NCBI GenBank assembly: GCA_963848305.1
Contig: CAWKDC010000001.1
Location: 1,408,001 to 1,472,000, forward strand
Length of the DNA: 64,000 nucleotides
Source of the DNA: an uncultured Gammaproteobacteria bacterium
Lineage (GTDB): Bacteria; Pseudomonadota; Gammaproteobacteria; JABCZS01
Reading direction: 5' to 3'
Shown here: positions 4,453 through 49,598 of the stretch, one piece after another
Layout of the letters: each line of letters opens with the position of its first letter
Position numbering within the stretch: the stretch's first letter is position 1
Made by a program: the position numbers and the translations under genes
Notes under the pieces: generated by a model
Told to the model about the DNA's origin: nothing
The model's database searches: none
Seen by the model: only the letters and a program-made list of their open reading frames with translations

Positions 4453-4509
4453 GTATTTTTAGGGAGTATGCTCCTTGAAAATCGTATTTTTAGGGAGTAT
4501 ACATCCTTG
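4453..4509 (+). promoter_or_regulatory. Tandem operator-like repeats (GTATTTTTAGGGAGTAT x2, 31-bp period) over a putative promoter
   Basis: Exact 17-mer at 4453 and 4484; TTGAAA(4475)-N17-TATACA(4498). Confidence 0.7.
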
Positions 4510-4524
4510 TGGATGGGGGGGGAT

Positions 4525-5172
4525 ATGAACTACATCAGACGGTTGCATTATTTAGAAAAGTTTGCGCGATTTATGGATGTGTGTGCATCTAGCCACGGAG
4601 AATTATTGAATTACACGAATATTGCAAGAGACTGCGCTATTGATGCAAAGACAGTAAAAGCTTACTATCAGATATTGGTCGATACGCTGATTGGATATTT
4701 TGTTTATCCCTTTTATAAAAAATCAAAACGAAATCATTTATCGGAAACCCCGAAATTTTATTTATTTGATGTCGGTGTTGCGCAGTACCTGCAAAAAATT
4801 CAAATCCATCAACTCTCAGGCATTGAAGCAGGCAATGCTTTTGAACATTTCATTTTCACTGAATTGATGGCATATAGTTATTATTCGGAAAAATATTTGG
4901 ATATTCGTTTTTGGAGAACGTCTACAGGATTGGAAGTGGATTTTATCTTGGGTGCAGGGAAGGTGGCAATAGAGTGCAAGATTGATTCAAGGGTGCATGC
5001 GTCTGATGTTAAGGGATTATATGCATTTTGTGAAGATTACCATCCTGAAAAAGCAATTGTCGTTAGCCAAGATGTGAGCGCCCGGCGTCTTGTGACTGGG
5101 CATCATACGCCGATTGATATCATTCCCTGGCAAGATTTTTTAACGCGATTGTGGGCAGGGGAGATTATTTAA
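4525..5172 (+). CDS. DUF4143-type wHTH/PD-(D/E)xK-like protein lacking the AAA ATPase domain
   Basis: LLNYTNIARDCAIDAKTVKAYYQIL (wHTH), PKFYLFDVG, EVDFIL...AIECK; no Walker A/B. Confidence 0.8.
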   Translation: MNYIRRLHYLEKFARFMDVCASSHGELLNYTNIARDCAIDAKTVKAYYQILVDTLIGYFVYPFYKKSKRNHLSETPKFYLFDVGVAQYLQKIQIHQLSGIEAGNAFEHFIFTELMAYSYYSEKYLDIRFWRTSTGLEVDFILGAGKVAIECKIDSRVHASDVKGLYAFCEDYHPEKAIVVSQDVSARRLVTGHHTPIDIIPWQDFLTRLWAGEII

Positions 5173-5245
5173 TGACCTCTATTGGCATGTGGATGCGCTT
5201 TGGCTGGGAGAGAGATGAGAAAAATGTTAAATAACGCTTAGTAGA

Positions 5246-5812
5246 TCAATCCCCGGTATGCAACTTCTTCATCGCGTCTTGCCATTTTCCCTGCAGGACA
5301 TCAGGCATGACTTGTAAGGCTTGAATGATCGCATGATCGATGGCTTTTTTTTCATCAGTGCGTGGTTTTTTCAAGACATAATCCACAACGTCTTTTGCAT
5401 TGCCAGGGTGCCCAATGCCAATGCGCAGGCGGTGAAAATGCGGCGTGCCTAATAATTGGATGATATGACGTAAACCATTATGGCCGCCATGGCCGCCGCC
5501 GATTTTGAGACGAGCAGTGCCTGGGGGCAAATCAAGTTCATCATGGACGACAAGGATATTTTCAGGGGGAATTTTGTAAAATTGGGCGACAGCGAGTAAC
5601 GCTTTGCCACTTTCATTCATGTAAGTGGTCGGGATCATCACGCGGCAAGGTTGCCCATGTAGATTGAGTGATGCCATTTGGCAAAACAGTTTAGCTTCCA
5701 GTTTGAGGGAAGTGTTGCCGAGTAAAGCATCCACAAACCACGCGCCCGCATTGTGACGTGTGTTTACGTATTCGGAACCGGGGTTGGCGAGGCCGATGAT
5801 GAGTTGAATCAT
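5246..5812 (-). CDS. pth: Peptidyl-tRNA hydrolase
   Basis: LIIGLANPG...[30 protein letters not shown]. Confidence 0.97.
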
Positions 5813-5828
5813 GAGGAGATCCTGTGTT

Positions 5829-5878
5829 GTAGGGGTGCAGCATTAATACTGATGTTCGCACATCAAGGGCGCCCCTAC
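5829..5878. repeat. GTAG-type REP element
   Basis: GTAGGGGTGC...GCGCCCCTAC inverted termini between rplY and pth. Confidence 0.75.
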
Positions 5879-5897
5879 AAAACACGTTATTTTGAGG

Positions 5898-6611
5898 TTA
5901 GGGCTGCCCTTCTTCCTTCGGCTTCAATGCATCTTCCAATTCCGCAGCTTCAGGATGTTCCGCTAAATATGCTGCATGTTCAGCAGCTTTCAAGGCTTCT
6001 TCAGCAGCATCAGCATCTAAATCTTCCTTCCCTTCTTTGATCACATGTGCGGAGACCACGGGGCGATCATGAGATTCGCCGAGATCCAATTCTGGAATCG
6101 TTACGCCTTTGGGCAACTTGATTTGTGACAAATGCAGGGCATCATCGACATCCATGCTGGAAACATCAACTTCGATGAATTCAGGCAAGTCGCGTGGCAA
6201 GCACTTGACTTCAACGTTCGTCATCACGTGGGTGAATTTCGCTTCCTTCTGCGCGGCAGGTGAATTTTCTTCGCCGATGAAATGCAAGGGAACATGCAAG
6301 GTGATGGGTTCGTTTGCTTTCACGCGTAAGAAATCCATGTGCAGTACACGGGCTTTGAAAGGATGGCGTTGCACGTCTTTCAACACAACATCTTCTTTTT
6401 TGCCATCAATTTTCAGGCTGAGAATGTGTGAATAGAACCCTTCATGTTCTAAATGTTTCATCACTTCTTTGTGCTCGAGTGTCAGCGGAGTGGCATTTTT
6501 GCCAGCACCGTAAACAATCGCAGGCACTTTGTTCGCGTGACGTAGGCGGCGGCTCGCACCCCTCCCAGCGTCTGAGCGCGTTTGCGCTTCGATTTCGTAG
6601 GTATGATTCAT
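5898..6611 (-). CDS. rplY: 50S ribosomal protein L25/Ctc (long form)
   Basis: GRGASRRLR...VPAIVYG, DVQRHPFK...HMDFLR, acidic C-terminal tail; between prs and pth. Confidence 0.96.
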   Translation of the reverse strand: MNHTYEIEAQTRSDAGRGASRRLRHANKVPAIVYGAGKNATPLTLEHKEVMKHLEHEGFYSHILSLKIDGKKEDVVLKDVQRHPFKARVLHMDFLRVKANEPITLHVPLHFIGEENSPAAQKEAKFTHVMTNVEVKCLPRDLPEFIEVDVSSMDVDDALHLSQIKLPKGVTIPELDLGESHDRPVVSAHVIKEGKEDLDADAAEEALKAAEHAAYLAEHPEAAELEDALKPKEEGQP

Positions 6612-6635
6612 GATTAACTCCAACTAGATTTAGGT

Positions 6636-6655
6636 TTGCCCCGCGACCAGGGCAC
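6636..6655 (-). promoter_or_regulatory. Putative L25 leader hairpin
   Basis: Minus strand GCCCT-GGTCGC-GGGGC hairpin just upstream of the rplY RBS; resembles the GGTCGC-containing gammaproteobacterial rplY leader. Confidence 0.45.
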
Positions 6656-6660
6656 ATATA

Positions 6661-7614
6661 TTACTCTGGGAACATACTGCTTAAAGATTCTGCTCCGTGA
6701 ATGCGTCGAATGGCTTCGGACAAAAGCCCGACCAAGCTGATTTGACGTATTTTCGGGCAACTTAAAGCCTCGTTTTTCAACAAGATGGTATCGGTGACGA
6801 CCAATTCATCCAGCGCGGACGCTTGGATATTGTTCACAGCCTTGCCGGACAACACCGCATGGGTGCAGTACGCGGTGACCCCGATCGCGCCACGGTTCTT
6901 CAAGACAGCAGCAGCGGTGCAGAGGGTGCCAGCGGTATCCACAATGTCGTCGACGATTATACACGATTTTCCGGAAACATCACCAATAATGTTCATCACT
7001 TCGCTTTCATTAGGGCGAGGGCGGCGTTTATCGATGATGGCCAGATCCGCGTCGTTCAGGCGTTTGGCAATCGCTCGGGTCACGACCCCGCCCACATCAG
7101 GTGAGACAACCACTAGATTGCCTTGATTCTGCGTATTCAGGTCAGCCAATAAAACAGGAGAGGCATAAACGTTATCCACGGGCATATCAAAGAAGCCCTG
7201 GATTTGTTCCGCATGTAAATCAACTGTCACGACACGGCAAATGCCGACGGATGCCAGCATATCCGCCACCACTTTGGCGGTGATGGGCACGCGGCTCGAG
7301 CGCACGCGGCGATCTTGCCGAGCATAGCCAAAATAAGGGATAACAGCTGTGATGCTGAGGGCGGAAGCGCGTCTCAGTGCATCAGCCATGATGATGAGTT
7401 CCATCAGGTTCTCGTTGGCGGGCGCATGGGTGGATTGAACAATGAACACGTCCTGTCCACGCACATTTTCTAGGATTTCGACTTGTGTTTCGCCGTCGCT
7501 GAAGCGACCGACATTGGCTTTCCCAATGGGCACTTTCAGATGTTGTGCAATGGCACGGGCCATGGCGGGGTTGGCATTACCGGTAAAAATGGTGAAATTA
7601 TTTTGATGTGACAC
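6661..7614 (-). CDS. prs: Ribose-phosphate pyrophosphokinase
   Basis: [46 protein letters not shown]; about one codon missing at GGVV-TRA relative to the usual GGVVRARA. Confidence 0.97.
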
Positions 7615-7647
7615 CGGCCAACCTCTGCATTTTGATGGTGGAAAATT

Positions 7648-7722
7648 TGGCTGGGGTGCTAGGATTCGAACCTAGGTATGCGGGGATCAAAACCCCGTGC
7701 CTTACCGCTTGGCGACACCCCA
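7648..7722 (-). tRNA. tRNA-Gln(TTG)
   Basis: TGGGGTGTCGCCAAGCGGTAAGGCACGGGGTTTTGATCCCCGCATACCTAGGTTCGAATCCTAGCACCCCAGCCA: cloverleaf, TTG anticodon, CCA end. Confidence 0.97.
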
Positions 7723-8544
7723 AATGCTTGGCAGCTGATTCATGCCTTGCGCGACAAATCCTACCACTTGTGAATCGATTTGTCCAATGCATTTTTCAGC
7801 TTTTTCTCGCGATTCGCACGCCACAAAAAAAGCAGAGCCGGAGCCGGTAAGTTTGGGTTCCCCAAAAGGCTTCAGAGCATCGATTGTGTCATGCAATTCA
7901 GGGAAATGCTTCAACAACACGGGTAAAAAATCGTTGTGTGTCTCGGCCCCTGCGCGATAGTCGGCTATTGTCAGCGGTTTAGTGTTTCTTGTCAACAGGG
8001 GATCGCGAAAAAGGGTGGTGGTATTGGCATGGATATTCGGTTTGACTATCGCGTACCAACAGGGAGGGAGATCAATGGGGGTGAGGATATCGCCTACCCC
8101 CTCCCCAAACGCAGAATGACCGAATACAAACACAGGCACATCGGCCCCGAGTGCCAATCCCTGTGCCATCAATTCGGTCTGGCTGAGGTTCAGTCCCCAT
8201 AAATGGTTTAGCACGTGAAGGGTGGTGGCGGCATTTGAGCTGCCGCCGCCCATGCCCGCACCCATGGGGATGCGCTTGTCCAGGCGAATGTTGACACCTT
8301 GCAGCCCAGGGCGCCACAGGGCACGTGCGGCTTTAAGGATAAGGTTGGTGTCAGGGGGGATATTGGGGGTGTTATCGGTCAGGAGGATTTGCGGATCTTT
8401 TCGCAGGGAAAATGTCAAAGTGTCATGTAAATCAATCAGTTGAAAAACAGTTTGCAACAGATGGTAGCCATCCTCTCGCTTGCCGACAATATGCAGGAAC
8501 AGGTTCAGTTTAGCGGGGCTTTGAGCGGTGATGGTGTCTTTCAT
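7702..8544 (-). CDS. ispE: 4-diphosphocytidyl-2-C-methyl-D-erythritol kinase
   Basis: SPAKLNLFLHI, KRIPMGAGMGGGSSNAA, LGADVPVF, LTGSGS. Confidence 0.97.
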   Translation of the reverse strand: MKDTITAQSPAKLNLFLHIVGKREDGYHLLQTVFQLIDLHDTLTFSLRKDPQILLTDNTPNIPPDTNLILKAARALWRPGLQGVNIRLDKRIPMGAGMGGGSSNAATTLHVLNHLWGLNLSQTELMAQGLALGADVPVFVFGHSAFGEGVGDILTPIDLPPCWYAIVKPNIHANTTTLFRDPLLTRNTKPLTIADYRAGAETHNDFLPVLLKHFPELHDTIDALKPFGEPKLTGSGSAFFVACESREKAEKCIGQIDSQVVGFVAQGMNQLPSIWGVAKR

Positions 8545-8559
8545 AAAGGAAATAGTCTG

Positions 8560-9192
8560 TTAATGCCCCGATAAATGCGCATTCCATTCGTGGATACTGA
8601 GCGTGATGGTTACATCAGGGTGTTTCAACACGATTTTGCCAGGCAAACGGTAGCGGTCGTGGGTTGCAAATGCTTCATATTGAATGTGCCAACCTTGCTG
8701 CTTTAGGCTGCGCAAGTCCCCATTGGGTGAAATATTCAAGTCATAGGCAAAGTGGGGGTCAGGCCGTCCTAATACCCAGTAGCGCAAGCTGGAGATAGGC
8801 AGTTCATAGTCTGTATGGCGGCTTAATAGCTCTTCAGGCGATTTGGCTGTATCGACAATCCCTTTTGAATCCTTGTATGAAATACTGCTGGGATTTCCTC
8901 GTAAGAAAATCGTGCCTTGATTGAGCGGGCCAGACAGTTTCAATAAATAATCGTTGTGTTGCTGCAACCAGCTAAGGCTGGCACTATCGGCTTTGTTGTG
9001 GGTGCGAACCGAGAAGCGGCCTTCAAAATGCCAAGATTCGAGATTGGAAATTCTGTCCTGATTTCGGTCAAAGGCCTGGTCGCGGTCTATGCCGGATAGA
9101 TTGGCATCACTGCTGGAAGGCGACTGAGCACAGCCAGAGGCCAAAAGGGCTGCCAGCAGCATCATAAAAGTATGTTTGATGAATAAATTCAT
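8560..9192 (-). CDS. lolB: Outer-membrane lipoprotein insertase LolB
   Basis: Lipobox ASGC, W-HFEGR, LPISSLRYWVLGRP, LKQQGWHIQY, LPGKI; upstream of ispE. Confidence 0.92.
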   Translation of the reverse strand: MNLFIKHTFMMLLAALLASGCAQSPSSSDANLSGIDRDQAFDRNQDRISNLESWHFEGRFSVRTHNKADSASLSWLQQHNDYLLKLSGPLNQGTIFLRGNPSSISYKDSKGIVDTAKSPEELLSRHTDYELPISSLRYWVLGRPDPHFAYDLNISPNGDLRSLKQQGWHIQYEAFATHDRYRLPGKIVLKHPDVTITLSIHEWNAHLSGH

Positions 9193-9311
9193 TGAAGATC
9201 CTTCACATTTAGTGGTCTACTGACATGATAGCATAATGGTGCGATACAGATTAGCGCGCAGAACATTAAGAGTATATAATATCCTCTTCATCTTCAGAGT
9301 GAGGCAGTATC

Positions 9312-11414
9312 ATGAACAGTGCGGAAGAATTACAGGTCATATTTGATATTACCCAAGAAACTATTGGGGTAGTCAGGGTTGATCCCCTTCCATACGATCT
9401 TAGGGTGCTGCAGCATTTGAAAACCATTGTGCCGCGCGGATTTGACATTAATCACACTGATAAAAATGATTATTGCGCATTGGCATATGCTGCAGAATAT
9501 AATTTCATTGAAAGCGTTAAATATTTACTGTCATTCGATCATATTAAAACCAATCTACAAGTCAACGAATCAGAAGATGATTTGGGTGGAATACCATTGC
9601 ACATGGCGGCCTTTCGGGGCCACCTAGAGATCATACGGTTATTGGTGGCAAAATCACCCGATGACATTGATGTACCGGAATACTGTGGCTACACACCCCT
9701 CCATGAAACCGTGTTGAGCGGGCATTATGGAGCTTTCAAATTATTATTGCGCTTAGGCGCGGATGATGGAGCAGAAACAGGGCGTGATGTGTCAGCGATT
9801 GATGTGCCTAAAGGCATGAATACATTACAATTGATTGCGCATCGTGCCAGCGAAGATCCAAATAACCGCGTGTTCTGCGACATGTGGGCATTTTTGGTGC
9901 GTCAAAAATTACGCAAAAATGAGAGTATTATCGGTAATGCTTTGCCGGATGAAGATGACAGTGATGATGATTTTGCTGATCCAATGGCATATGAGTCTAC
10001 AAGCGCTCTCATCGAGCGATCAGGTCGCGATGATTTTAAAGAAGCTTATGAAAGAGAAAAAAAACGAAAAAAAGGCATAGAAGATCACGGTGAAGTATTC
10101 ACGGATTCTGATTCAGAATCGGATGCAGGTTATGATACAGATGACATAAAGGATGCTTCACCCGCACTGGCACTGGAACAACATTTTGCCGTTGACGCAC
10201 CAGACAAACAGTTAGTGCTTCATGCCAGGGGCAATCATTTTTATAAAAATCATGAAACCCTTGCGTCGAGAAGAAAGTACGTCAGATATTCGTCAGCAAA
10301 TGTATTAACAGCGTGGGGCATGTACAGTGCAGACGCTCATGCACGTGCTGAGGTAAGTTTGGCATTGCCAGATCACAATAACACCACCAGAGATATTCAG
10401 CTGGAACAAGCTTCGCAACAAACCAATGCGGTGCTGGCTGGTTTTCATGCGCAAAAAGAAGTTGCGCCGATTTTGCAGCGTGACAGCGCTGAGAGCATGG
10501 CTCGAAAATCATTTGAATCTCGTTTGATTGAATTGGTGCAGCGTTATGTCAATTCATATACAGCGTTGACGGAAGATATCGCCAATGCTCAAAACAAAAC
10601 GGAACGGGATTTTAGAAATGATCGTACCAAAGCAAAGCAACGTACCTTGGTGCAACTGAGGAAAAATCCTTTTGTGTCGACCTCTGAAGACATTGGTGTT
10701 GGTTTAGAATATGCATTCGCCCTCTTAAATTACGATAAAAAAGAGACGCATCGCCCCGTGCCGACACTCGATTTCACATTAACGCCAGAATATCAGCTGG
10801 ATGGGGATGTTAAGCATCCTTACTTGGGGGTAATATTCATCACGTTGCATACTGAACATGCATTGCAGGGTCATAGCCTTAACATTGCGGAATTGTTCCG
10901 CGACAACAAAATTGACCCGATGAAAGGACCCGGTACGCATGAAACGAGTGGTTATGTGCGCGCATTAGAGCATGTATTTTTCGGCGGCATTTCCAGTGAT
11001 CATGTCTGTTTGGCAAAAGTGGTACGTGTGCCGAATTTATATCATCCCTACCGATCATTTGTGATGACAAAATATGGCTTGACTGCTAACGAATATATCA
11101 AATATAAAAAGGATTTGGCTGAATCTGGCAAAATTGATCCCATAAATAAAAAAATGAAAAATGAGAAGGATTTTTATCGAACCCAAGAGCAACTCATTCA
11201 GCATGTGATCAGGTTTGAGCGAACCAAGCTTATCCGCGCGATACAGGCTTGGGCAAGAGAGAAGGGTGTCACCGTGGGTTCATTGGACGATAGGGGTCAA
11301 TTTGTGGCCAACATCGATATTGATATCCCAGCTAAAATTCGGCCGATGTCAATGCCAGGGTCGCCAACAGGCGGATTTAGGAGACAAACTATTTTATATG
11401 TTATTGATTTTTAG
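9312..11414 (+). CDS. Ankyrin-repeat protein with putative C-terminal R-S-E ADP-ribosyltransferase domain (effector/toxin-like)
   Basis: Ank motifs GGIPLHMAAFRGHLEIIRLLV and GYTPLHETVLSGHYGAFKLLL; acidic linker; KKRKK; then HARG, PFVSTS, LEHVFFGGI. Confidence 0.7.
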   Translation: MNSAEELQVIFDITQETIGVVRVDPLPYDLRVLQHLKTIVPRGFDINHTDKNDYCALAYAAEYNFIESVKYLLSFDHIKTNLQVNESEDDLGGIPLHMAAFRGHLEIIRLLVAKSPDDIDVPEYCGYTPLHETVLSGHYGAFKLLLRLGADDGAETGRDVSAIDVPKGMNTLQLIAHRASEDPNNRVFCDMWAFLVRQKLRKNESIIGNALPDEDDSDDDFADPMAYESTSALIERSGRDDFKEAYEREKKRKKGIEDHGEVFTDSDSESDAGYDTDDIKDASPALALEQHFAVDAPDKQLVLHARGNHFYKNHETLASRRKYVRYSSANVLTAWGMYSADAHARAEVSLALPDHNNTTRDIQLEQASQQTNAVLAGFHAQKEVAPILQRDSAESMARKSFESRLIELVQRYVNSYTALTEDIANAQNKTERDFRNDRTKAKQRTLVQLRKNPFVSTSEDIGVGLEYAFALLNYDKKETHRPVPTLDFTLTPEYQLDGDVKHPYLGVIFITLHTEHALQGHSLNIAELFRDNKIDPMKGPGTHETSGYVRALEHVFFGGISSDHVCLAKVVRVPNLYHPYRSFVMTKYGLTANEYIKYKKDLAESGKIDPINKKMKNEKDFYRTQEQLIQHVIRFERTKLIRAIQAWAREKGVTVGSLDDRGQFVANIDIDIPAKIRPMSMPGSPTGGFRRQTILYVIDF

Positions 11415-11476
11415 GGCTTTAAAAGTTTGCGCATGGTGTTGAAACGGCATATAATCAAGGTGTCACAGGAGCAAGT

Positions 11477-13660: not shown

Positions 13661-13664
13661 TTTT

Positions 13665-15395: not shown

Positions 15396-15529
15396 TCGCT
15401 ATTGTTCGTGATACTACCCTTATCTATCTGTCGATCGCGTGTGATCTTGAGCAAAATCAGGTAAAATAGTCCTTGGCGCGGCTTGGTTCCAGGCTGAATC
15501 TTATAACTACATGAATTTTAAGTGAATTT

Positions 15530-20314: not shown

Positions 20315-21451
20315 GTGCCTAGCTTATTAGAAAGCAGAGATACATTCGTCAGGGGTTTAAATGTCATCCTTGATGATTATGTTCGTGGAGAGACGACAAG
20401 TACCCGAGGGACTACCTTGTTACGTCAATGGATGGGCGTGGGTCTTACCCATCAACAAGCAGCGATCGACTTAAAGCATCAGCTCAACCTTTATCTTGAA
20501 AGGATATTGAAAGGTGATGAGCCTTCATCGCTTTGGTTAACATTAATCAAAAACCTACGCGCATTCCATGAGAAATTGGTGGAGGCAAACAGTCAGGCAC
20601 TACTGACTGCACTGTTAAATTATATTGAATCAAGTGATTTCAAATCGATTCTCACAGATCCTATATTGATTGATAATAATATCATTGCAACTTTAAATGC
20701 ATTGCCATTCAGCATTACTCAGACTGTTGATGAGCATAAATATAAATGTGTTGACAATGGCCGATTGATACATGATATTCATCGCTATCAAGGCATCATG
20801 AGTATCACAGTTAATAAGGAAACACACGCATTCAATGAATGGATCAAAGTAGAAATTATCGATGAAGCAGAGAATGGACATTATAAGGTCATCGATGTTA
20901 TGCATGACCGATCCCAAGAAGGAGATGCGGACAGTGCCATGGCTGCAGTTGCACATCTATTTGGGCAACATTTTAGCGATCCTGTGACATTTGCGCATCT
21001 TGTTCCATATTTATCACAGAATGCTGTGTTGACAACATTGAGCCAAGATTTATTGTCATTGGTAAGACACACAGGATTGCAATTGTTGAATGTATCTGGC
21101 GTGAATTCCCTACAAGATATTACTAGCATGCAAGGGGTATTAGATAATGACGTTGCCATCATGCCCGGTTTTCAATTGTCCCAGCTTAAAACATTTTTTG
21201 ACATCGCTGATGACAATGGGCCTGTGATCACAGTGCGATATATTTATGATCAATATGTATTACTTGACTCAGAGAGCGGCACGGATCCTATTCCATTGCT
21301 CACCCCTGTTCAAGTGGAAGAGCGTTTCCGTTGCACATTGTCTGAAAATGGCGACAGTGCCACGATCAAACATGAATCTATTCGATTCAGCGCAGTACAA
21401 GACATGCCTGTGTCTGCGGAAAAATCGAGAAATGCGCCTGAGATTTTTTAA
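20315..21451 (+). CDS. Hypothetical protein (orphan, effector-like)
   Basis: ~380-aa ORF, GTG start after GGAG; no recognised motif. Confidence 0.65.
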   Translation: MPSLLESRDTFVRGLNVILDDYVRGETTSTRGTTLLRQWMGVGLTHQQAAIDLKHQLNLYLERILKGDEPSSLWLTLIKNLRAFHEKLVEANSQALLTALLNYIESSDFKSILTDPILIDNNIIATLNALPFSITQTVDEHKYKCVDNGRLIHDIHRYQGIMSITVNKETHAFNEWIKVEIIDEAENGHYKVIDVMHDRSQEGDADSAMAAVAHLFGQHFSDPVTFAHLVPYLSQNAVLTTLSQDLLSLVRHTGLQLLNVSGVNSLQDITSMQGVLDNDVAIMPGFQLSQLKTFFDIADDNGPVITVRYIYDQYVLLDSESGTDPIPLLTPVQVEERFRCTLSENGDSATIKHESIRFSAVQDMPVSAEKSRNAPEIF

Positions 21452-22680
21452 TACAAAAAACCAAATAGCCATAATGGGATTTTAGTTTTATACCCTTGTT
21501 CAATATCATCAATGGCCAAATATGCGTTTTGAATATGTTTGATTTGATTAAAATCTTTGTTCTTTCCACCAACCTCAAAAGTATATTGCTTATCAATAAG
21601 AAAATCGCCTACCGTAGGCAAATGGATATCATGTTGAGATTTGAGCATGGACATGAAAAACACTTCTCGCAGCGTGCCTTTATCGACCTGATGGTCAGCG
21701 CTTAATGCAAAGAGCTGGCAAGTATTGTTCGGGTAGATTTTATCTGATTTTTTGAGACCGCTCATTTTCTTATCGCTTTTGTGCAGACAGATAATGATGC
21801 CAGCTTCCTCGATGATCTTCATGTATTGTTTGAGCGTTCTTTCGTCTGAAATCTCTAAAATATATTTCAATTCTTTTAAGTCAGCAGTGAAGGGAACATG
21901 TGTGCTTAAAAATCCCAAGAGCCTTTTCATTTTATCAACACTCGCACCAGAGAGCGTGGGATGAATCGCGGGTAAATCACTTTCCAGAACGGTATGTAAA
22001 TTTTGCTCCACTGTCATGTAAAAAACGTTTTTGTCATTGAATTCTTTAGAATAAGGAAAATAACCGTATTTTAAATACTCGGAAAATAGCGTTAAAGTAT
22101 TCAATGATCTAGCGTTAATTGTTTTAACAATGTGTTTGCAATATGTTTCATGATCTAACAGCATTTTTTCAAATGCGACGGCCTCAAAATCAAACCCGTG
22201 GCAAAGCGATAAATATTCACGGAATGACATGCCATTCATGTCATACACGATCGCGCGACGCGATAGATCGTAAGCGCCGCGGTGAATGGCCAGCGCTGAG
22301 CTTCCTGATGCGAATACGTGCAATGCGGGGAAAGTGTCATAAATACTTTTGAGCTCTTGTGACCAGTTCGCATATTTGTGAATTTCATCAAACCCGATAT
22401 ATTCGCCGCCTTGCATCACAAACGATTCCGCAATGGCGTATAGCGAATAATTTTTGACTAAAAAATGGTCGACTGGCACATATAAGATTTTGTTTTTGGG
22501 CAACCCTGGTTTTTTTAATAATTGAACGACGACAGTCGATTTCCCTACACCCCGTTGCCCACGAATGACTGTGATGCGATGTTCAAAACTATGCGTTCTA
22601 ATAAAATAGCGAATAAAAGGCCTGTAGAGGACTTCGAGCATTTGTTCGCTCAGCGGAAAGAGAATATCTAGCATGGTCAT
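21448..22680 (-). CDS. AAA_14-family ATPase with C-terminal DUF4143-like/nuclease-like region
   Basis: GQRGVGKS, FDEIHKY, ASGSS, YGYFPY, KIYPNNT, GDFLID...FEVGGKNK. Confidence 0.88.
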   Translation of the reverse strand: MTMLDILFPLSEQMLEVLYRPFIRYFIRTHSFEHRITVIRGQRGVGKSTVVVQLLKKPGLPKNKILYVPVDHFLVKNYSLYAIAESFVMQGGEYIGFDEIHKYANWSQELKSIYDTFPALHVFASGSSALAIHRGAYDLSRRAIVYDMNGMSFREYLSLCHGFDFEAVAFEKMLLDHETYCKHIVKTINARSLNTLTLFSEYLKYGYFPYSKEFNDKNVFYMTVEQNLHTVLESDLPAIHPTLSGASVDKMKRLLGFLSTHVPFTADLKELKYILEISDERTLKQYMKIIEEAGIIICLHKSDKKMSGLKKSDKIYPNNTCQLFALSADHQVDKGTLREVFFMSMLKSQHDIHLPTVGDFLIDKQYTFEVGGKNKDFNQIKHIQNAYLAIDDIEQGYKTKIPLWLFGFLY

Positions 22681-22687: not shown

Positions 22688-22742
22688 AAATAGGAATGTA
22701 ACCCTATTATAACTCAAAAAAATAGGATTGCAATCCTATTTT
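22688..22742 (-). promoter_or_regulatory. Two palindromic operator-like sites (32-bp period) over promoter TTGCAA-N16-TATAAT
   Basis: AAATAGGAATGTAACCCTATT (22688) and AAATAGGATTGCAATCCTATT (22720; perfect 24-bp palindrome 22719-22742). Confidence 0.75.
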
Positions 22743-22755: not shown

Positions 22756-22836
22756 TTGATTTTTGACCATAGATTGGCATAAATAGGGTTGATTTTCGAC
22801 CATGAAAAGCCTATAATTGCATTGAAAAACAACCAT
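22756..22836 (+). promoter_or_regulatory. Three operator-like direct repeats (33-bp period) over promoter TTGATT-N17-TATAAT
   Basis: TTGATTTTTGACCAT (22756), TTGATTTTCGACCAT (22789), TTGAAAAACAACCAT (22822); TATAAT at 22812. Confidence 0.75.
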
Positions 22837-22851
22837 GGGAAAAGCATTGAC

Positions 22852-24208
22852 ATGGAAAGACTGATAGATTCATTTCTAAATCAATGGGTTATTGATAATG
22901 CTCGAAAGCCGCTTTTATTACGTGGTGCGCGCCAGGTGGGAAAAACATTTGCGGTGCGTCAGCTTGGAAAGACCTTTTCAAAGTATGTTGAAATCAATTG
23001 TGAGGAACGCCAAAGAGACTGCCAATTATTATTTGAGCAGGATTTGGATCCATCTAATATATTACGCGGGTTATCTTTATTAGCGGGCGAAACTATCGTT
23101 CCTGGTGAAACATTGTTATTTTTAGATGAAATTCAGAGTGTCCCGCGCGCCATCATTGCATTGCGATATTTCTATGAAAAAATGCCCGAGCTGCATGTCA
23201 TTGCGGCGGGATCATTGCTTGAGTTTGCGTTGGAGCAGGTCGGTGTGCCTGTTGGTCGCATTGATTCATTCTACATGTATCCCATGACATGGCTCGAGTT
23301 TTTGTGGGCAAAAAAAGAAAGATTGTTATTTGATGAAATTTGTCAGCATGATTTGCACACCCCAATGCCAGATGTAATTCATGATAAATTATTACGGTTG
23401 TTGGGTGAATATTTTGCGATAGGCGGTATGCCAGAAGTGGTGAGCCATTGGGTTGAATCCAATGATCCTTATCTATGTTTTAAGACACAGCAGGCATTGG
23501 TTGATAATTATCGACAAGATTTTGAAAAATATGCAAAGAAGCATCAAGTGAAATATGTCGAAGTATTATTCAATCAGATACCGAGACAATTGGGCAAAAA
23601 ATTCAATTTCTCTGCTGTACCAGGAGAATATCGCAAACGTGAATTGCTTCCTTGTTTTGATTTGTTGGTCAAAGCCAGTGTCATACATCCTGTGTATCAT
23701 ACCAGTGCACAAGGCTTGCCGCTCGGTGCAGATGTGGATTTGGATAAATTCAAAGCACTTTTTTTAGACATTGGGATGGCGCAAGCATTATTAGGCTTGG
23801 ATTTGAAAGAGTGGATTTTGAATCCTACTGAAGCTTTTGTGAATCAGGGTGAAATTGTTGAAGCCTTCATTGGACAAGAAATTCTTGCGTATTCACATGC
23901 ATTCCAGAAAAAAATGATTTACTATTGGCATCAGGAAACTAGAGAGGGCCAATGCTGAAATTGATTATGTCATTCAAATCCGAAATGACATTATTCCAAT
24001 TGAAGCAAAAAGTGGAAAGACGGGAAGACTGAGGAGTCTTAGGGAATATTTGAATAGCCATTCAGAGACGCCTTATGCGATACGTTTTTCAGCCCTGAAT
24101 TATTCAGAGTTTCAAGGGCTGCGAAGCTACCCCTTGTATGCAGTGGCGAAAGCCATAGGAATGGATTGGGTACAATTTTTACGCTCATCGGCTAAATCTT
24201 TGTTATAA
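22852..24208 (+). CDS. AAA_14/DUF4143 ATPase-nuclease, frameshift near 23945
   Basis: [31 protein letters not shown]; shifted frame continues [10 protein letters not shown]...IPIEAKSG to TAA at 24206-24208. Confidence 0.88.
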
Positions 24209-35944: not shown

Positions 35945-35953
35945 GGGTGAGTC

Positions 35954-38896: not shown

Positions 38897-38911
38897 ATTG
38901 GCAGGGAATAT

Positions 38912-38994
38912 TACCGAGGAGAGGACTCGAACCTCCACGGGCAAAGCCCACGAACACCTGAAGCTCGCGTGTCTACCAATTCCACCACCCCGGC
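38912..38994 (-). tRNA. tRNA-Leu(CAG), no encoded CCA
   Basis: GCCGGGGTGGTGGAATTGGTAGACACGCGAGCTTCAGGTGTTCGTGGGCTTTGCCCGTGGAGGTTCGAGTCCTCTCCTCGGTA; long variable arm. Confidence 0.92.
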
Positions 38995-39208
38995 AATGGG
39001 GACGATTTTAAGCCTTTTCATCAGATTGTGCAAGGGGTGCTTCTTAATCTTCGCCCCCTTTGAACGGGGCAGGCTGCGAGGCATAGATGTCATATGTCCC
39101 TAAAACATTCATTGAAATGTCCATATAAATCATCACTGACATAGGTCAAAAAACCCATTTTACTTTTCCTCCCTCCCGTCGATAAGAGAAAGGCAATGGG
39201 AGAGAAGC

Positions 39209-39601
39209 ATGATGAACAACAGTGAACCTTTTAAAATTTGGCATGCCCAGGCATTATCAACCATAGATTATGATTATGGCAATGTGCCTATTCATTTATC
39301 AAAGGCGAAGATGCTGGCCAGTCATCTCCAGAAGGGCAAGCCCTGCTACTTGATGTTATACAGCGATTTATGCATTGAAATCGTCAATGTAGTTCGCGTC
39401 TTTCATGACATCATCACCATCGAGCGTGCGCAAAAAGGCACAAATGCAACATTGTGGCCTGCCGGCTCTTGCATCAGCGCAAAAATCAGCGCCAAGGTAT
39501 TGAAAGAACTCCATTTGGACAAAGATGCCTTTTTGAAAACCGATAATCGCGCCCGTGTCACGCCCGAGGGGGATGTCATTACCCTTTGTGTTAATAATTA
39601 A
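39209..39601 (+). CDS. Hypothetical protein resembling a phage tail-protein N-terminal module
   Basis: [39 protein letters not shown] resembles the EIV...LTIERAQEGT...W.AG motif of phage tail proteins; GGAGAG RBS. Confidence 0.5.
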
Positions 39602-39714
39602 ATCCGCCTCGGCCCCTGTTTTCAGGGGACGCGGGCAAAAGATTTTTCCAAAATACAATATCGTTCCTCCTAAAAACCCGCTACAATAGGCCAGTTCAGA
39701 AGGAGGGTTTCGTT

Positions 39715-40854
39715 TTGCAAACACCAGCCGTGTTAGCTTTGGAAGATGGGCTTATTTTTCAAGGGATCGCTATTGGTTACCACGGGAGTACGTGTGGTGA
39801 GGTCGTATTCAATACTGCGATGACTGGCTATCAAGAAATTCTGTCTGATCCGTCTTATGCGGAACAAATCGTGACCTTAACTTATCCGCATATTGGCAAT
39901 ACGGGCACCAATGAAGAAGACAATGAATCTGGTGCAGTGTATGCTAAAGGGCTGGTCATCCGGGATTTATCAGGTGTCACCTCTAATTGGCGCAGCACGG
40001 CTTCCCTCTCAGATTATTTAACCTCGCGCAAGATTGTCGGCATCGCAGAACTGGATACCCGCGCGCTCACGCATCATTTGCGTACCCATGGCGCCAAGCG
40101 TGGCGCCATCGTGTGTGGAAACAATATCGATACAGCCGCTGCGGTGAATATGGCCAAAAATGCACGTGATTTAAAGGGTCTAGATCTCGCGAAGGAAGTC
40201 ACGTGCAAAGCGCCCTATGTATTTGAAGAAGGCACCTGGGATGCCACGCAAGCAGGTCAATTTCCTTTGCCCAAAAAATACAAAGTGGTGGTGATGGATT
40301 ATGGCGTGAAGCGCAATATTCTTCGGATTTTGGTTGATTTGGGTTGTGAAGTGCACGTATTGCCAGCCCAATCTTCCCTCGACACGGTATTGTCATATCA
40401 TCCTGACGGCGTGGTATTTTCAAATGGCCCAGGCGATCCTGAACCTTGCGATTATGCAATCCAATTGATCCAAGATCTGATTGCAAAACATATGCCGATC
40501 TATGGCATTTGTTTAGGGCACCAATTGTTGGGCTTGGCGATGGGCGCGCGCACGTATAAAATGGCGTTCGGACACCACGGGGCAAATCATCCCGTGGTCG
40601 ATCTTGACACCGGCAAAGTGTGGACAACCTCACAAAATCATGGTTTTGCCATTCAAGATGATGCATTGCCGCCCGACGTAGTGGTCACCCACCGCAGTTT
40701 ATTTGATCAATCGATACAAGGCATACGCTTGAAACATAAACCCGCTTACAGTTTTCAAGGACATCCTGAAGCCAGTCCCGGGCCGCACGATGCGCTGGGC
40801 TTGTTCAAACCTTTTCTGAAAGACATGGAGCATCACCGTGCCGAAACGCGATAA
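39715..40854 (+). CDS. carA: Carbamoyl-phosphate synthase small subunit
   Basis: [40 protein letters not shown]. Confidence 0.98.
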
Positions 40855-43800: not shown

Positions 43801-44052
43801 GAAACCGTGAAAAAAGTGGCGGAAGGTCGTCCTCACGTGGTTGACATGATTAAAAACGGTGAGATTGAATTTATTGTGAATACCACAGAGGGTAAACAAG
43901 CGATTGCGGATTCTTTTGCCATCCGCCGCAGTGCATTGCAATCGAAAATCAAATATACTACGACATTGGCGGGCGGGTTTGCTGCAGCCAGTGCCTTTGC
44001 TTGTGATAAGCAATGGCAAGTTGTTCCTCTTCAAATTTTACACAACAGGTGA
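40838..44052 (+). CDS. carB: Carbamoyl-phosphate synthase large subunit, apparent frameshifts near 40890 and 41702
   Basis: GTG start [17 protein letters not shown] / [13 protein letters not shown] ... GGSNVQFA / [28 protein letters not shown] ... MGS domain. Confidence 0.95.
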
Positions 44053-44055
44053 GAA

Positions 44056-44532
44056 ATGGTACGTATTCCCGTAACCCCCGAGGGACAGAAGGCTATGCAG
44101 GAAGAATTGGATTTTTTGAAAAAGGTCGAGCGTCCTCGCATCATTGAGGCGATCAAAACAGCGCGAGAATTAGGCGACTTGAAAGAAAATGCTGAATACC
44201 ATGAAGCGAAACGTGAACAATCGCACATTGAAGGCCGCATTCAATATTTGGAAGGTACCTTGTCAAATTGCCAAGTCATTGATGTCACGAAATTAAATGC
44301 AACTGGCCGCGTGGTTTTTGGTTGCACTGTGACGATCATGAATCTGTCGAATGAAGAGGAAGTGACCTATAAATTAGTCGGCGAAGATGAAGCAGATATC
44401 AGGAAAAATAAATTGTCTGTTTCTTCTCCCATTGCGCATGCTTTGATTGGGAAAGAAGAGGGCGACGAAGTCACGGTTCAAACCCCGAGTGGCTTGTTGA
44501 AATATGAAATCATTGAAGTGAAATATTTGTAA
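44056..44532 (+). CDS. greA: Transcription elongation factor GreA
   Basis: [30 protein letters not shown]. Confidence 0.97.
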
Positions 44533-44573
44533 CGTCATGACGAAATTTATACCATTATCAAGGATTGAATCAC

Positions 44574-45053
44574 ATGAAAAAAACTGGCTTCGAACATGTC
44601 CGTGAATTCCACGAGACTTTCAACCATCCCATCCATACCACGCCTTTCGTCCCTGACGAAAAAACCATCAAACTGCGTTTGGCCTTGATTTTGGAAGAGT
44701 TCACCGAATTGACTGAAGCCTGCTTGGGTGATACTGAATGCGCTCACAAAACGTTGAGCACCCTGGCTCAGGCCATGGACAATGTGAAGGCCTTGCAAGC
44801 TGACGATCTCAATGTGGATCTTGTCGCTGTCGCAGATGCCCTGACAGACATCAATTACGTCACCTACGGCGCTGGTCATTGTTTTGGCCTGGATTTGGAC
44901 GCCTGCATGCAAGAAGTCCAGCGCGCCAACATGAGTAAACTCGGCGAAGATGGCAAGCCCATCTACAACGAGCATGGCAAAATCATGAAGGGCTCACGAT
45001 ACACCCCGCCGGATATTGCCAAAGTGCTGCAAGTTCCGCCTGATAAAGAGTAG
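44574..45053 (+). CDS. MazG-like all-alpha NTP pyrophosphohydrolase (DR2231/PRA-PH type)
   Basis: VREFHETF, LRLALILEEFTEL, VADALTDINYVTYG, EVQRANMSK, GKIMKG. Confidence 0.85.
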   Translation: MKKTGFEHVREFHETFNHPIHTTPFVPDEKTIKLRLALILEEFTELTEACLGDTECAHKTLSTLAQAMDNVKALQADDLNVDLVAVADALTDINYVTYGAGHCFGLDLDACMQEVQRANMSKLGEDGKPIYNEHGKIMKGSRYTPPDIAKVLQVPPDKE

Positions 45054-45120
45054 GATGCCCATTAACTGAATCCAGATATTATGCCATTGCTCTCTATAAT
45101 GAATTGAAAAATATGGGGAT

Positions 45121-45464
45121 ATTGGCATAGATTCAGTCGATCACTTTCTGATGGCTGCACCAAAGAAAAATAGGAAAATTTATCTTCAAGACCCTTTTAT
45201 TTATCATGCGGTATCTGGTTTTGTTCATCAAGATTAAGGGCTCCAAGGGGGAGGTCGATGTGGCCGTGGTCAACGGGCAATCGTTTTTTACCCATTGGGA
45301 CCTCACAGCTCCGCTTGGATGATTTGAAGCAGATTCTCCTTTATCCCAGTGGGCTGATCTTATGGAACCGTCCCGAGGGGCAGGGTTTTCAAGATGTACC
45401 GGTCATCCCATTGCCAAGATTTTTGCTGAGCGAATCTATCCCATTGAATTATATACGATCATAA
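45121..45464 (+). pseudogene. Degraded AAA_14/DUF4143 C-terminal remnant
   Basis: Broken frames encode LMAAPKKNRKIYLQDPFIYHAV, KGEVDVAVVNG and TSQLRLDDLKQIL...IPLPRFLL. Confidence 0.6.
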
Positions 45465-45555
45465 ATGAGCGATATTTTTCATTAAACCCGAGACAAACCC
45501 CAATTTTAATGTTAAAATTCTTCATCTCAAGATGACACAGTTTAGGAGTTTATTC

Positions 45556-45837
45556 ATGGCATTAACAACCGCCCAGAAAGCAGACGTAGTTAGCAAATCA
45601 GCTACACAATTCGCCTTAAATGCAAAAGACACAGGCTCTCCTGAAGTCCAAGTGGCTTTGCTCACAGAGTCAATCACCAAATTGACCGCTCACCTCAAAA
45701 TCAATAAGCAAGACAAACATTCACGTTATGGGTTGATCAAGATGGTCAGCAAACGCCGTCGTTTGTTGAACTACTTGCGCGCCAACGATGTCGCACGCTA
45801 CCAACAAGTGTTGGCTGCGCTGGATTTACGCCGTTAA
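45556..45837 (+). CDS. rpsO: 30S ribosomal protein S15
   Basis: [32 protein letters not shown]; AGGAG RBS. Confidence 0.97.
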
Positions 45838-45916
45838 TCGCCGTAACGATGCCGCGCATCTGCTCCCGCTCGCTTTTTAAAATCGCTTTTATATACAAAA
45901 GGAAATATCGCTCGTG

Positions 45917-48007
45917 ATGAAAATGACAAGAAAGACTTTCAAGTTTGGCAGACACACTGTCACCCTGGAAACAGGCCGCATTGCCAGACAAGCCTCTGGT
46001 GCTGTGTGGGTAGATATGGAGGGGACCATCGTCCTCGTTACCGCTGTCGCCATGAAACAAGCGGATCCGAAAAAAACATTTTTTCCATTAACCGTTAACT
46101 ACCAAGAACGTACGTATGCAGCAGGCTTGATCCCTGGCAACTACTTCCGTCGTGAAGGCCGTCCTTCAGAAGCTGAAACATTGATTTCACGCTTGATTGA
46201 CCGTCCTATCCGTCCTCTTTTCCCCGATGGTTTCATGAATGAAGTGCAAATCATTGCAACCGTGAAATCATTGAATCCCGATGCCAGTCCTGATATCGCC
46301 GCATTGATTGGCGCGTCTGCTGCATTGAAAATTGCCGGTGTGCCATGGGCTGGTCCTATTGCTGCGGCACGTGTCGGCTATCAAGATGGTGAGTATCTTT
46401 TAAATCCCTCTGAGAAAATGCTTGAAACTTCAGAATTGGATTTGGTCGTCGCAGGTACTGCGAAAGCGGTGTTGATGGTTGAATCTGAAGCCAAAGAATT
46501 GCCTGAAGAAATCATGTTGGGCGCGGTGATGTACGGTCATGCGGAATTCCAAGTGGTGATCAATGCCATTAACGAATTTGTCGCAGAAGCCGGCAGTGAA
46601 TCTTGGAACTGGCAGCCTGCTGTGTCCAATGTTGAATTGAAGGCGCAAGTGGAAGCATTCGTGAAAGGCGATATTGCCAAAGCCTATGAAATGCGCGATA
46701 AGCTCGTTCGTCGTGATCAGTTATCTGCACTCAAAAAAGCTTCGCTCGAAAAATTCGTGGTGGAAGGTGGCAGTGTCACTGCTGACGATGTTGGCAATAT
46801 TTTTGGTGAAATCGAAAAAGAACACGTCCGTCATCAAATTCTGTCAGGTCATTTACGTATTGACGGTCGCGACAATCAAACTGTTCGCCCGATTACGACG
46901 GAAGTGGGCTTGTTGCCACGAACACACGGTTCTGCATTGTTTACACGCGGTGAAACTCAAGCCATTGTGGTGGCAACACTCGGTACTGAGCGTGATGCAC
47001 AAAAGATGGATGGTTTAGCGGGTGAATTCAGCGAACGCTTCATGCTGCATTACAACTTCCCTCCTTTCTGCGTGGGTGAAGTTGGTATGGTCGGTGCGCC
47101 CAAACGCCGTGAAATTGGTCACGGAAATTTGGCTAAACGCGCCATCAAACCGTTATTGCCTGACATGAAAGATTTCCCTTATGTCCTGCGTGTTGTGTCT
47201 GAAATCACTGAATCTAATGGTTCAAGCTCCATGGCTTCTGTGTGTGGCACCAGCTTGGCGTTGATGGATGCGGGCGTGCCGCTTAAGGCGCCTGTCGCAG
47301 GTATTGCCATGGGTCTGATCAAAGAAGGCGAACGTTTCGCTGTGTTGACCGATATCTTGGGTGATGAAGATCATTTGGGTGACATGGACTTTAAAGTCGC
47401 AGGTACCGAAGAAGGTGTCACAGCCTTGCAAATGGACATCAAGATTGAAGGCATTAACCATCAAATCATGCAAGTTGCCTTGGAACAAGCCCGTAAAGGC
47501 CGTTTGCATATTTTAGGTAAAATGGCTGAATCCTTGACCGGTCCTCGCCAAGATATTTCAGATTTTGCACCCCGTATCACGACGATCAAAGTCAACCCTG
47601 ATAAGATCCGCGATATCATCGGTAAAGGTGGCGCGACTATCCGTGCCTTGACCGAAGAAACCGGCACCACGATCGACATCACTGACGATGGCACTGTGAA
47701 GATTGCCGCAGTCGACGGCGAAGCTGCGAAGAAAGCGGTAGAACGCATTCATGCGTTAACCGCCGAAGCAGAAGTCGGCGCAGTTTACAAAGGCAAAGTG
47801 GTGAAGGTTGTCGATTTCGGCGCATTCGTGAACTTCTTGCCCGGTAAAGACGGTTTGGTTCATATTTCGGAACTGAGCCATGAACGCGTTCAAAACGTCA
47901 ATGACGTGGTTCATGAAGGTCAAGAAATCATGGTCAAAGTGCTTGAAATCGACAAGCAAGGCCGTGTACGTCTGAGCGTGAAAGCGTTGGATGAACAGCC
48001 TGCGTAA
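45917..48007 (+). CDS. pnp: Polyribonucleotide nucleotidyltransferase
   Basis: [42 protein letters not shown] and S1 domains. Confidence 0.98.
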
Positions 48008-48013
48008 TGGCTT

Positions 48014-48170
48014 GTAAGGGCGCGTCTTCGACGCGCACGGGCGGGAATACCCGCCGCCCCTACAAACACGCGCTACCGGTTGCATTTGTAGGGGCGCATA
48101 TTTGCGCCCGTCGCGCTCTGCGTTTACAAAAAATATCTAATGAATAGGGCGAATGACTATTCGCCCCTAT
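48014..48170. repeat. Cluster of three GTAG-type REP-like palindromes downstream of pnp
   Basis: GTAAGGGCGC...CGCCCCTAC (48014-48063), GTAGGGGCGCATATTTGCGCCC (48088), TAGGGCGAATGACTATTCGCCCCTA (48145). Confidence 0.8.
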
Positions 48171-48188
48171 ACCCCTGAGCAATCACGA

Positions 48189-49508
48189 TCATACAATCAA
48201 CTCAGCAAAATACAAGGGATAATATCGAACATAACCATCCTGCATCCCAGGTGCTTTTGCACTGAAAATAATTTGATAAGGTGGGTGATACTTTGCAGCG
48301 AATGTTTGTAAACTTTTCGCACGTGTCACGTTTCCTGATTTAACTTCCAGTGGAATAATATCTGCACCATCAGTGTGCAAAAATTCAATTTCAGATCGTC
48401 CTTCCTGCCAAGCATATAATGAAGCGTGTCTCGCATTCAATAAGGCTTGAGCCACATAGTTTTCTGCGAAATAGCCCTTGTAACTGCCATAATCTTGATC
48501 CAAGATAGCTTTCACAGGAAGTTGGCTCATGGCGCCTAATAGGCCGATATCATTCATATATAATTTAAAAGTATTATCTTTCGCATAAGCAGGTAGGGGA
48601 ATGCGTGGTGTTTCTATCACAGGGACTTTGATCACGAGCTGAGCCGCGCATAACCAATCAATGGTATCTGCCAATCGTTGGTAACGATCAATACCAGGTA
48701 AAATACCTTTGAATTTGAACTTTTGAGTGCTGCCGTCTTGAGCGCGGGCGAGTTGCGCTGGCACATCTCTCCACACACGTGCAATGTGCATGGCATTGAC
48801 CTTCCCTGCATGTTTAGCGATATCAGCTTCATAAGCAATGATCAGATCCTCCTGCTTATCACGTACTTTTTGAAATGCAGTGAAGAGCGTATCCTGATAT
48901 TCGACATAGATACTCACTGCGGCCGGCATGCCGCCGACCACAAAGTATTTTTTTAAGAATGTCCATAAGGATTGATGTATGCTATCTGGTATGTGCGTGG
49001 TTGTGGGTGAAAGAGTATTTAATAAGTCGAATAATTTTTGCTGCCCAATGGCGAGTAAAAATTCTTTGAAACTCATCGGGTAAAGGGTTAAAAATTGTAC
49101 TTTTCCAACGGGAAAAGACGCCTGATTTAAATGTAGTCCTAACAAAGAGCCTGCGCCGCAAATAGCCGCTTTAGGCATATCCTCACAAAAATATTTGAGG
49201 CTGGTGAGTGCACGTGGGCAAGCCTGAATTTCATCAAAAAAAATAAAATCTTCGGCGGGGTTGATGTCCTGGTTGATCAGAAAGCTGAGCTCAGAAAGGA
49301 TGTTTTTAGGATCTAACGGGCCGTTGAAAATGGGTGACAGGCGGCTGTCTTGCTCAAAATTGAAATAGTGCATACAAGGGAAATGGGATGCGCCAAACTC
49401 CTTGAGGATATAGGTTTTGCCACATTGTCTAACACCCTTTAAAATCAATGGGATACGATTTTTTTGGTTTTTCCATTGGATAAGTTGAGCCATGATTTGC
49501 CGTTGCAT
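48189..49508 (-). CDS. AAA_14/DUF4143 ATPase-nuclease
   Basis: GVRQCGKT, IFFDEIQ, VGGMPAAV, FKLYMNDIG, EIEFL...IPLEVKSG; GAGGT RBS. Confidence 0.9.
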   Translation of the reverse strand: MQRQIMAQLIQWKNQKNRIPLILKGVRQCGKTYILKEFGASHFPCMHYFNFEQDSRLSPIFNGPLDPKNILSELSFLINQDINPAEDFIFFDEIQACPRALTSLKYFCEDMPKAAICGAGSLLGLHLNQASFPVGKVQFLTLYPMSFKEFLLAIGQQKLFDLLNTLSPTTTHIPDSIHQSLWTFLKKYFVVGGMPAAVSIYVEYQDTLFTAFQKVRDKQEDLIIAYEADIAKHAGKVNAMHIARVWRDVPAQLARAQDGSTQKFKFKGILPGIDRYQRLADTIDWLCAAQLVIKVPVIETPRIPLPAYAKDNTFKLYMNDIGLLGAMSQLPVKAILDQDYGSYKGYFAENYVAQALLNARHASLYAWQEGRSEIEFLHTDGADIIPLEVKSGNVTRAKSLQTFAAKYHPPYQIIFSAKAPGMQDGYVRYYPLYFAELIV

Positions 49509-49530
49509 AGATACCTCATTTGTTGCCATT

Positions 49531-49598
49531 CTTGCAAATTATGACAGATTTGACATTTTTTACAAGCAAAAAATGTCAAATTTGACGTTTTTTGCAAG
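49531..49598 (-). promoter_or_regulatory. Two palindromic operator-like sites (32-bp period) upstream of the AAA gene
   Basis: GCAAATTATGACAGATTTGACATTTTTTACAAG (49534) and GCAAAAAATGTCAAATTTGACGTTTTTTGCAAG (49566; 30-bp palindrome with 1 mismatch). Confidence 0.75.

Follow-up and report, generated by a model that had tools for sequence, protein, structure and literature searches.

The 64,000-nt stretch of DNA analysed here (the window) corresponds to positions 1,408,001 to 1,472,000 of contig 1 of an uncultured gammaproteobacterial genome assembly (GCA_963848305.1; 1.89 Mb, 46.7% G+C, four contigs). It contains four members of the AAA_14/DUF4143 family of ATPase-nuclease genes, and short repeated sequences are found directly upstream of each of them. 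An earlier note on this DNA had proposed that each gene is a self-contained cassette whose product reads its own operator array. All four genes match profiles of the phage-defence candidate PDC-S01 of PADLOC (Pfam AAA_14 plus DUF4143; COG1373), and searches of the window family proteins with NCBIfam profiles gave nothing above the cut-off.

Gene G (48189–49508, minus strand) is intact and encodes a 439-aa protein consisting of an AAA+ ATPase, a helical lid, a winged helix and a PD-(D/E)xK-like nuclease; its open frame (48189–49529) matches Pfam AAA_14 and DUF4143 as well as PDC-S01 model PDLC04786 (3.3e-143). Gene F (21448–22680, minus strand) is also intact (410 aa) and combines an AAA_14 ATPase (Pfam, 5e-26) with a divergent C-terminal half. 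Pfam DUF4143 was not matched in gene F, and PDC-S01 model PDLC04787 was matched at 4.4e-31 over positions 6–340 of 412. Gene J (22852–24154, plus strand) is frameshifted: translation up to position 23958 gives the ATPase, lid and winged helix, and the nuclease core lies in another frame at 23954–24154, as a tblastn comparison with paralogues H and G placed the C-termini in a different frame. The J frame (22789–23958) matches AAA_14, part of DUF4143 (profile positions 2–137 of 160) and PDC-S01 (5.4e-114). The fourth member (4525–5172, plus strand) is a 5'-truncated remnant with a winged helix and nuclease and no ATPase. The open frame containing it reaches up to 4435, and this frame (4435–5172) matches only DUF4143 in Pfam and PDC-S01 at 3.7e-34, in the C-terminal half only. 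AAA_14 and DUF4143 therefore occur in one protein in G and J, and not in F (AAA_14 only) or in the remnant (DUF4143 only). The architecture of AAA ATPase, winged helix and PD-(D/E)xK-like C-terminus that had been ascribed to all four genes is seen in intact gene G; the remnant is without the AAA domain, J is frameshifted and F is without a Pfam DUF4143 match.

The repeat sets described in the earlier note were found at all four loci, and their motifs are unrelated to one another. Two AATAGG-N8-CCTATT palindromes with a lag of 32 bp (22690–22709 and 22722–22741) lie proximal to gene F. Upstream of gene J, on the plus strand at 22757–22836, are three direct copies of TTGATTTTYGACCAT, namely TTGATTTTTGACCAT at 22757, TTGATTTTCGACCAT at 22790 and, at 22822, a third copy that is degenerate; the lag of 33 bp scores 13/14. 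The gene G array (49534–49597, minus strand) consists of two 32-nt units starting at 49534 and 49566 that are 81% alike and partly palindromic, with the core AAAAAAYGTCAAAT on the gene G strand. Next to the remnant, the 17-mer GTATTTTTAGGGAGTAT occurs twice on the plus strand (4453–4500), at 4453 and 4484, with a lag of 31 bp and 100% identity between the copies. Across the 1.89-Mb genome every motif is essentially unique to its own promoter: the F palindrome motif has one other occurrence and the exact J motif has none. The array of J, the divergent neighbour of F, also holds an F-type half-site, AAATAGGGTTG, at 22781–22791 between its first and second copies, which hints at cross-talk between these back-to-back cassettes.

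Predicted sigma-70-like promoters overlap the arrays of the three genes that retain an ATPase. The candidate F promoter (TTGCAA, 16 nt, TATAAT; 22706–22733, minus strand), which is a consensus match only (10/12 positions), places its -35 element in the middle of the distal palindrome, with the -10 element abutting the proximal palindrome. A predicted J promoter, TTGATT-17-TATAAT, lies within the J array at 22789–22817, and a predicted G promoter, TTGTAA-16-(TG)CATAAT, lies within the proximal unit of the G array at 49565–49538. No such promoter was found around the first repeat when positions 4360–4560 were inspected. The proposed overlap of arrays with -35 and -10 elements thus stands for F, J and G and fails for 4453–4500. 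Directly beyond the G array, at 49610–49638, we also observed a divergent near-consensus promoter (TTGACA, 17 nt, TAAAAT; 11/12 matches) whose spacer holds a run of ten G residues. This run is absent from the same position in the same-genus orthologue, and changes in its length would alter the promoter spacing. Poly-G tracts as a feature of the family were dropped, as 17 runs of at least eight G or C residues were counted in the genome and about 24 were expected from base composition; a poly-G run near paralogue D is part of GC-rich sequence and has no visible link to that gene.

The genome contains about 13 paralogues that are complete or almost complete, in addition to fragments, and these paralogues are 17–36% identical to gene G. 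We scored a repeat when a 14-mer recurred with at least 12/14 matches at a lag of 31–33 within 160 nt upstream, and a palindrome when at least 9/10 pairs were formed. With hand-chosen start codons, 8 of the 13 paralogues had a repeat at a lag of 31–33, and scores at the remaining lags from 8 to 70 were almost absent. With automatic gene calls the repeat was found for 6/12 family genes and 11/860 other genes (one-sided Fisher p = 1.8e-8, a value to be read with the caution that paralogues are not independent, though their motifs are mutually unrelated). A repeat or a palindrome preceded 11/13 family genes and 122/860 others. Some of the non-family hits resemble operators of other regulators, indicating that a three-turn spacing is not exclusive to this family: two TATTAGCATA..GCTAATA palindromes spaced by about 31 bp precede the gene at position 1015150 of contig 1, and CGTATTAAAATAC occurs twice, about 31 bp apart, before the gene for a small helix-turn-helix-like protein at position 1212557 of the same contig.

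Two of the paralogues outside the window deserve description. Upstream of paralogue A (contig 1, about 1153420–1153610) are two CTTCCTTTT..AAGGAAG palindromes 32 bp apart, and farther upstream AATTGCACCAATTGCACC occurs three times, every 29 bp, adjoining a divergent gene that we take, from its N-terminal sequence, to encode an AlbA_2/Schlafen-like putative regulator. Paralogue K (contig 3, 64056–65240) appears to be frameshifted near its start, as the frame opened by an upstream ATG is out of register when it reaches the Walker A region. A lag-32 repeat and a palindrome are nevertheless present upstream of paralogue K. AAA_14 matches were present in all 11 genomes of the same taxonomic family that were searched, with 3–35 per genome (0.9–2.2 Mb). 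This expansion is unusually large for small genomes.

Upstream regions from other taxa were collected with subfamily alignments (G/H/J and B/D/E/I) as queries. The G/H/J search, limited to one genome per species, yielded 80 loci from many phyla, of which 67 non-redundant upstream regions were scored. A repeat at a lag of 32 or 33 was present in 40 of these 67 regions, many of which also scored at 64–66, and no repeat was detected inside the genes (0/67), downstream (0/65), far upstream (0/58) or in shuffled sequences (0/335). The occurrence of upstream arrays in other taxa is therefore strongly supported for this subfamily. Two units were found at 19 loci, three units at 19, four at one and five at one. 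Many of these arrays share the core AAAA[AG]TGTGA, and the promoter-proximal unit often runs into TGTGATATAAT. The core of the G array resembles this core from other phyla, and by its sequence the window array at 49534–49597 is a variant of the same array type. The B/D/E/I subfamily, which was searched in metagenomes, gave a different picture. Such a lag was found in only 1 of its 75 loci, and palindromes were found in 43/75, compared with 6/75, 7/68 and 23/225 in the controls. The B/D/E/I palindrome is typically 31–33 bp long, and in most cases it ends no more than about 60 nt from the start codon. Hence the geometry of about three helical turns that had been proposed for the whole family is real for G/H/J, in the form of a 32–33-bp lag, and was rejected as a universal property on the basis of B/D/E/I, in which a single 31–33-bp palindrome takes its place. 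A mixed set of loci from relatives of the organism contained a repeat or palindrome in 18/26 cases.

The sites are conserved together with the protein. Orthologues of F with 74–76% protein identity were identified in three other genomes; those of two other genera keep both palindromes and the intervening TATAAT, and everything further upstream is unrelated. The same-genus orthologue of G is located in a different neighbourhood, and DNA homology (74%) is limited to window positions 48195–49599, that is, from the stop codon of gene G to the far end of the array. The array itself is identical at 54/64 positions, compared with 9/26 in the leader and 48/127 beyond the array. Gene and private repeat set thus go together and the flanks do not, in agreement with the view of these genes as solo cassettes. 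A scan of flanking genes (an ATP-binding cassette transporter, pth, nuoA, nuoB, pnp and three frames without a Pfam match) revealed no recognisable regulator.

Two 103-nt direct repeats with 94% identity span the 3' end of pnp (47926–48028 and 50181–50283). They delimit a segment of 2255 bp that contains gene G, its array and a 173-aa frame without a Pfam match. A same-genus genome has pnp without this segment. The segment has the appearance of an insertion with duplication of the target, and it contains no integrase. A terminator-like 27-mer is also duplicated here (48086–48112 and 50267–50293).

The structure of the gene G protein was modelled with AlphaFold2 using 65 sequences (predicted local distance difference test score, pLDDT, 90.8; predicted template-modelling score 0.90). 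In the model a P-loop domain is followed by a helical lid and then by a winged helix, as in ORC/Cdc6- and STAND-like AAA+ switches. The top Foldseek matches were the archaeal AAA+ ATPases 2qen and 2fna (E 3e-8 and 1e-7; template-modelling, TM, scores 0.44/0.53), followed by CED-4/Apaf-1-type STAND proteins and then by ORC/Cdc6 proteins, including Orc1 on origin DNA. A sequence search against solved structures gave no match. The C-terminal half modelled alone (pLDDT 85.3) had no Foldseek match at E ≤0.001 and aligned mostly with proteins of the restriction-endonuclease fold (McrC, Can2/Card1 and NucS) at modest Z scores of 4–5.9. E349, E388 and K390 of the PD-(D/E)xK motif are invariant in the 65 sequences, and E373 is nearly so. 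DUF4143 is listed among the PD-(D/E)xK families in the available part of a published classification (PMC3424549). Prediction of a gene G homodimer scored 0.00, which is below the mark and weighs neither for nor against self-association.

We also compared operator similarity with protein similarity across 43 loci, a small and phylogeny-confounded set. Operator similarity tracked protein similarity (Mantel r 0.36–0.43, reached by 0/2000 permutations). In partial Mantel tests that accounted for the other domains, the largest signal was carried by the nuclease segment (r 0.18, reached by 20/2000 permutations), which makes the nuclease-fold domain a candidate reader of the array.

From the position of the repeats over predicted promoters, their enrichment, their conservation and their inheritance together with the protein, and from the DNA-binding type of fold in the model and the lack of a regulator among the flanking genes scanned, we infer that the arrays are, on balance, probably self-operators that travel with the gene, the product of which would bind sites over its own promoter and limit its own synthesis. 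Each intact gene encodes a PDC-S01-type protein in which an ORC/STAND-like AAA+ ATPase, a helical lid and a winged helix are fused to a PD-(D/E)xK-type nuclease, and its predicted promoter is built into a short set of lineage-specific sites. These take the form of two to five direct units every 32–33 bp in the G/H/J subfamily, two palindromes 32 bp apart for F, A and L, and one 31–33-bp palindrome in the B/D/E/I subfamily. The product would then occupy neighbouring sites along a single face of the DNA helix and cover the -35 and -10 elements, thereby limiting its own synthesis; roles for ATP and for the nuclease may be envisaged as well. Gene and sites would be inherited and moved as one unit, and, since the sites of co-resident paralogues have diverged, these paralogues would not cross-regulate. 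It is also conceivable, if unlikely, that the arrays are docking or assembly sites with a mainly non-transcriptional role and that repression is a by-product. An example would be an ORC-like or iteron-like platform, with ATP-bound protomers lined up on it head to tail, that would restrain the nuclease, mark self, or serve in moving or copying the cassette. The likeness of the ATPase, lid and winged helix to Orc1/Cdc6 and STAND switches is consistent with docking, as are the fixed 32–33-bp period, the presence of up to five units reaching well upstream of the promoter, the position of the array at one exact boundary of the unit common to the same-genus genomes, and the covariation of operator similarity with the nuclease segment above all. 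On the other hand, an operator would be expected to overlap or adjoin the -10 element or start region, as the proximal unit does in nearly every case, and no second array was seen at the other end of the cassette, where the homology stops at the stop codon. No AT-rich unwinding element or replication gene was noticed, although no search was aimed at them. We consider it very improbable that an unrelated regulator of the host binds the repeats, or that they have no dedicated protein and serve as tandem promoter elements or UP-like elements. Such an origin would account for the common core that resembles an extended -10 element in many loci, and other regulators of this genome do have sites about 31 bp apart. 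It is difficult to reconcile with motifs that are completely different between paralogues of one genome, each unique to one promoter, and that follow the protein across phyla and neighbourhoods; moreover, the F, H and J motifs are unlike promoter hexamers.

Several observations weigh against autorepression through self-operators. Part of the conservation could be that of promoter sequence, given the resemblance of the core AAAATGTGATA(TAAT) to an extended -10 element. No repeat was detectable, at the thresholds used, in 27/67 G/H/J and 32/75 B/D/E/I loci, and in the mixed loci from relatives a repeat at a lag of 29–34 was found in just 6/26. In the partial Mantel test the winged-helix segment was without a signal of its own (r 0.009, reached by 886/2000 permutations), and the equivalent winged helix of STAND proteins is a regulatory domain that is not known to bind DNA. 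The covariation expected if the winged helix reads its own array, as had been suggested, was thus not obtained. Finally, the repeat at 4453–4500 shows that a 31-bp repeat can arise in this genome without being an operator. A likely explanation of its two 17-mers, judged from the sequence, is a 31-bp tandem duplication that accompanied loss of the 5' part of the gene and has no regulatory function. The gene at 4525–5172 has no ATPase, no promoter match surrounds the repeat, and the closest full-length relatives (55–59% identity) do not have this motif upstream. The remnant aligns to residues 168–394 of a 396-aa relative, and the homology starts upstream of the ATG, inside the second 17-mer; the repeat, which lies partly in leftover coding sequence, is therefore probably not an ancestral operator. 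In favour of a function, the 17-mers are perfect and the remainder of the 31-bp unit differs between the copies, a pattern that selection on the 17-mer could produce, and the 31-bp lag falls inside the usual range of the family. The claim that 4453–4500 is an operator array is probably incorrect. We also rejected the possibility that the remnant arose by an internal in-frame deletion and still has its first N-terminus and promoter, because neither this N-terminus nor the motif is found in the closest full-length relatives and the homology extends upstream of the ATG.

Self-operators and docking might be joined in a more specific proposal, which we put forward as doubtful. A PDC-S01 cassette would comprise the protein and a private array serving as an assembly platform, on which ATP/ADP-switched protomers would be placed head to tail every three helical turns, silencing the promoter and keeping the nuclease inactive until a trigger arrives. 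Fast divergence of each protein-array pair would let at least 10 paralogues coexist without cross-talk in a 1.9-Mb genome, and the DNA reader may be the nuclease-fold domain, not the winged helix.

The gene family is known, and the idea that it serves in defence is already catalogued in the candidate PDC-S01. In the accessible part of one survey, PDC-S01 is presented as a widespread system of one gene, in which an ATPase is joined to a PD-(D/E)xK domain, and as the fourth most common prokaryotic defence system in PADLOC-based surveys, with 29,494 bacterial and 9,986 archaeal copies (PMC12988326). It ranks among the most abundant systems and is unvalidated, according to the available portions of two sources (PMC12988326, PMC13356809). 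When the coding sequence of one representative was examined in E. coli B against T7, T5 and T4, PDC-S01 was not among the four protective candidates named in the accessible text of the report, by which account the coding sequence alone had been cloned, behind an inducible promoter (bioRxiv 10.1101/2024.09.26.614923). The main text of the original PDC paper makes no mention of PDC-S01 (bioRxiv 10.1101/2024.01.29.577857). In the accessible parts of this published record the protein family is counted in surveys and the upstream array described here is not mentioned, and we found no treatment of function or upstream repeats in those papers of the searched literature that mention DUF4143. As far as the literature searched reaches, the conserved cis array therefore appears to be undescribed in print. 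Among public sequencing runs no RNA run was listed, and partial DNA shares of at most 0.27 were obtained in soil and wetland metagenomes.

A conserved cis element that travels with its gene provides a direct experimental handle, since binding studies, footprinting and structure determination can all start from a defined DNA ligand. Its existence also suggests that half of the unit was missing from earlier tests in which the coding sequence alone was cloned. Furthermore, orthogonal protein-DNA recognition could be studied on the natural panel that this genome offers, with its 13 near-complete copies and a private motif for each.

Other known systems resemble these cassettes in part. In McrBC, too, an AAA+ motor is paired with a PD-(D/E)xK nuclease, and the best alignments of the C-terminal domain described here are those to McrC (Z 5.9) and Can2/Card1 (Z 5.2–5.6), in a Z range that the tool rates as common; in our case both activities reside in one chain, which has no CARF domain and no McrB-type DNA reader. 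Plasmid Rep initiators and phased-operator autorepressors bind fixed-period direct repeats adjacent to or over the promoter of their own gene, resulting in autoregulation. The iteron period is roughly 22 bp, whereas the period here is 32–33 bp, the fold is unrelated, and the genes are chromosomal and solo, with products that would bind their cognate repeats. Archaeal Orc1/Cdc6 differs in that the protein described here has a C-terminal nuclease and sites that overlap the promoter, and the TM-scores are low (0.24–0.29). The likeness consists of fold matches to 2qby and 2v1u, the shared AAA+ ATPase, lid and winged helix, and repeated cognate sites located beside the protein's own gene.

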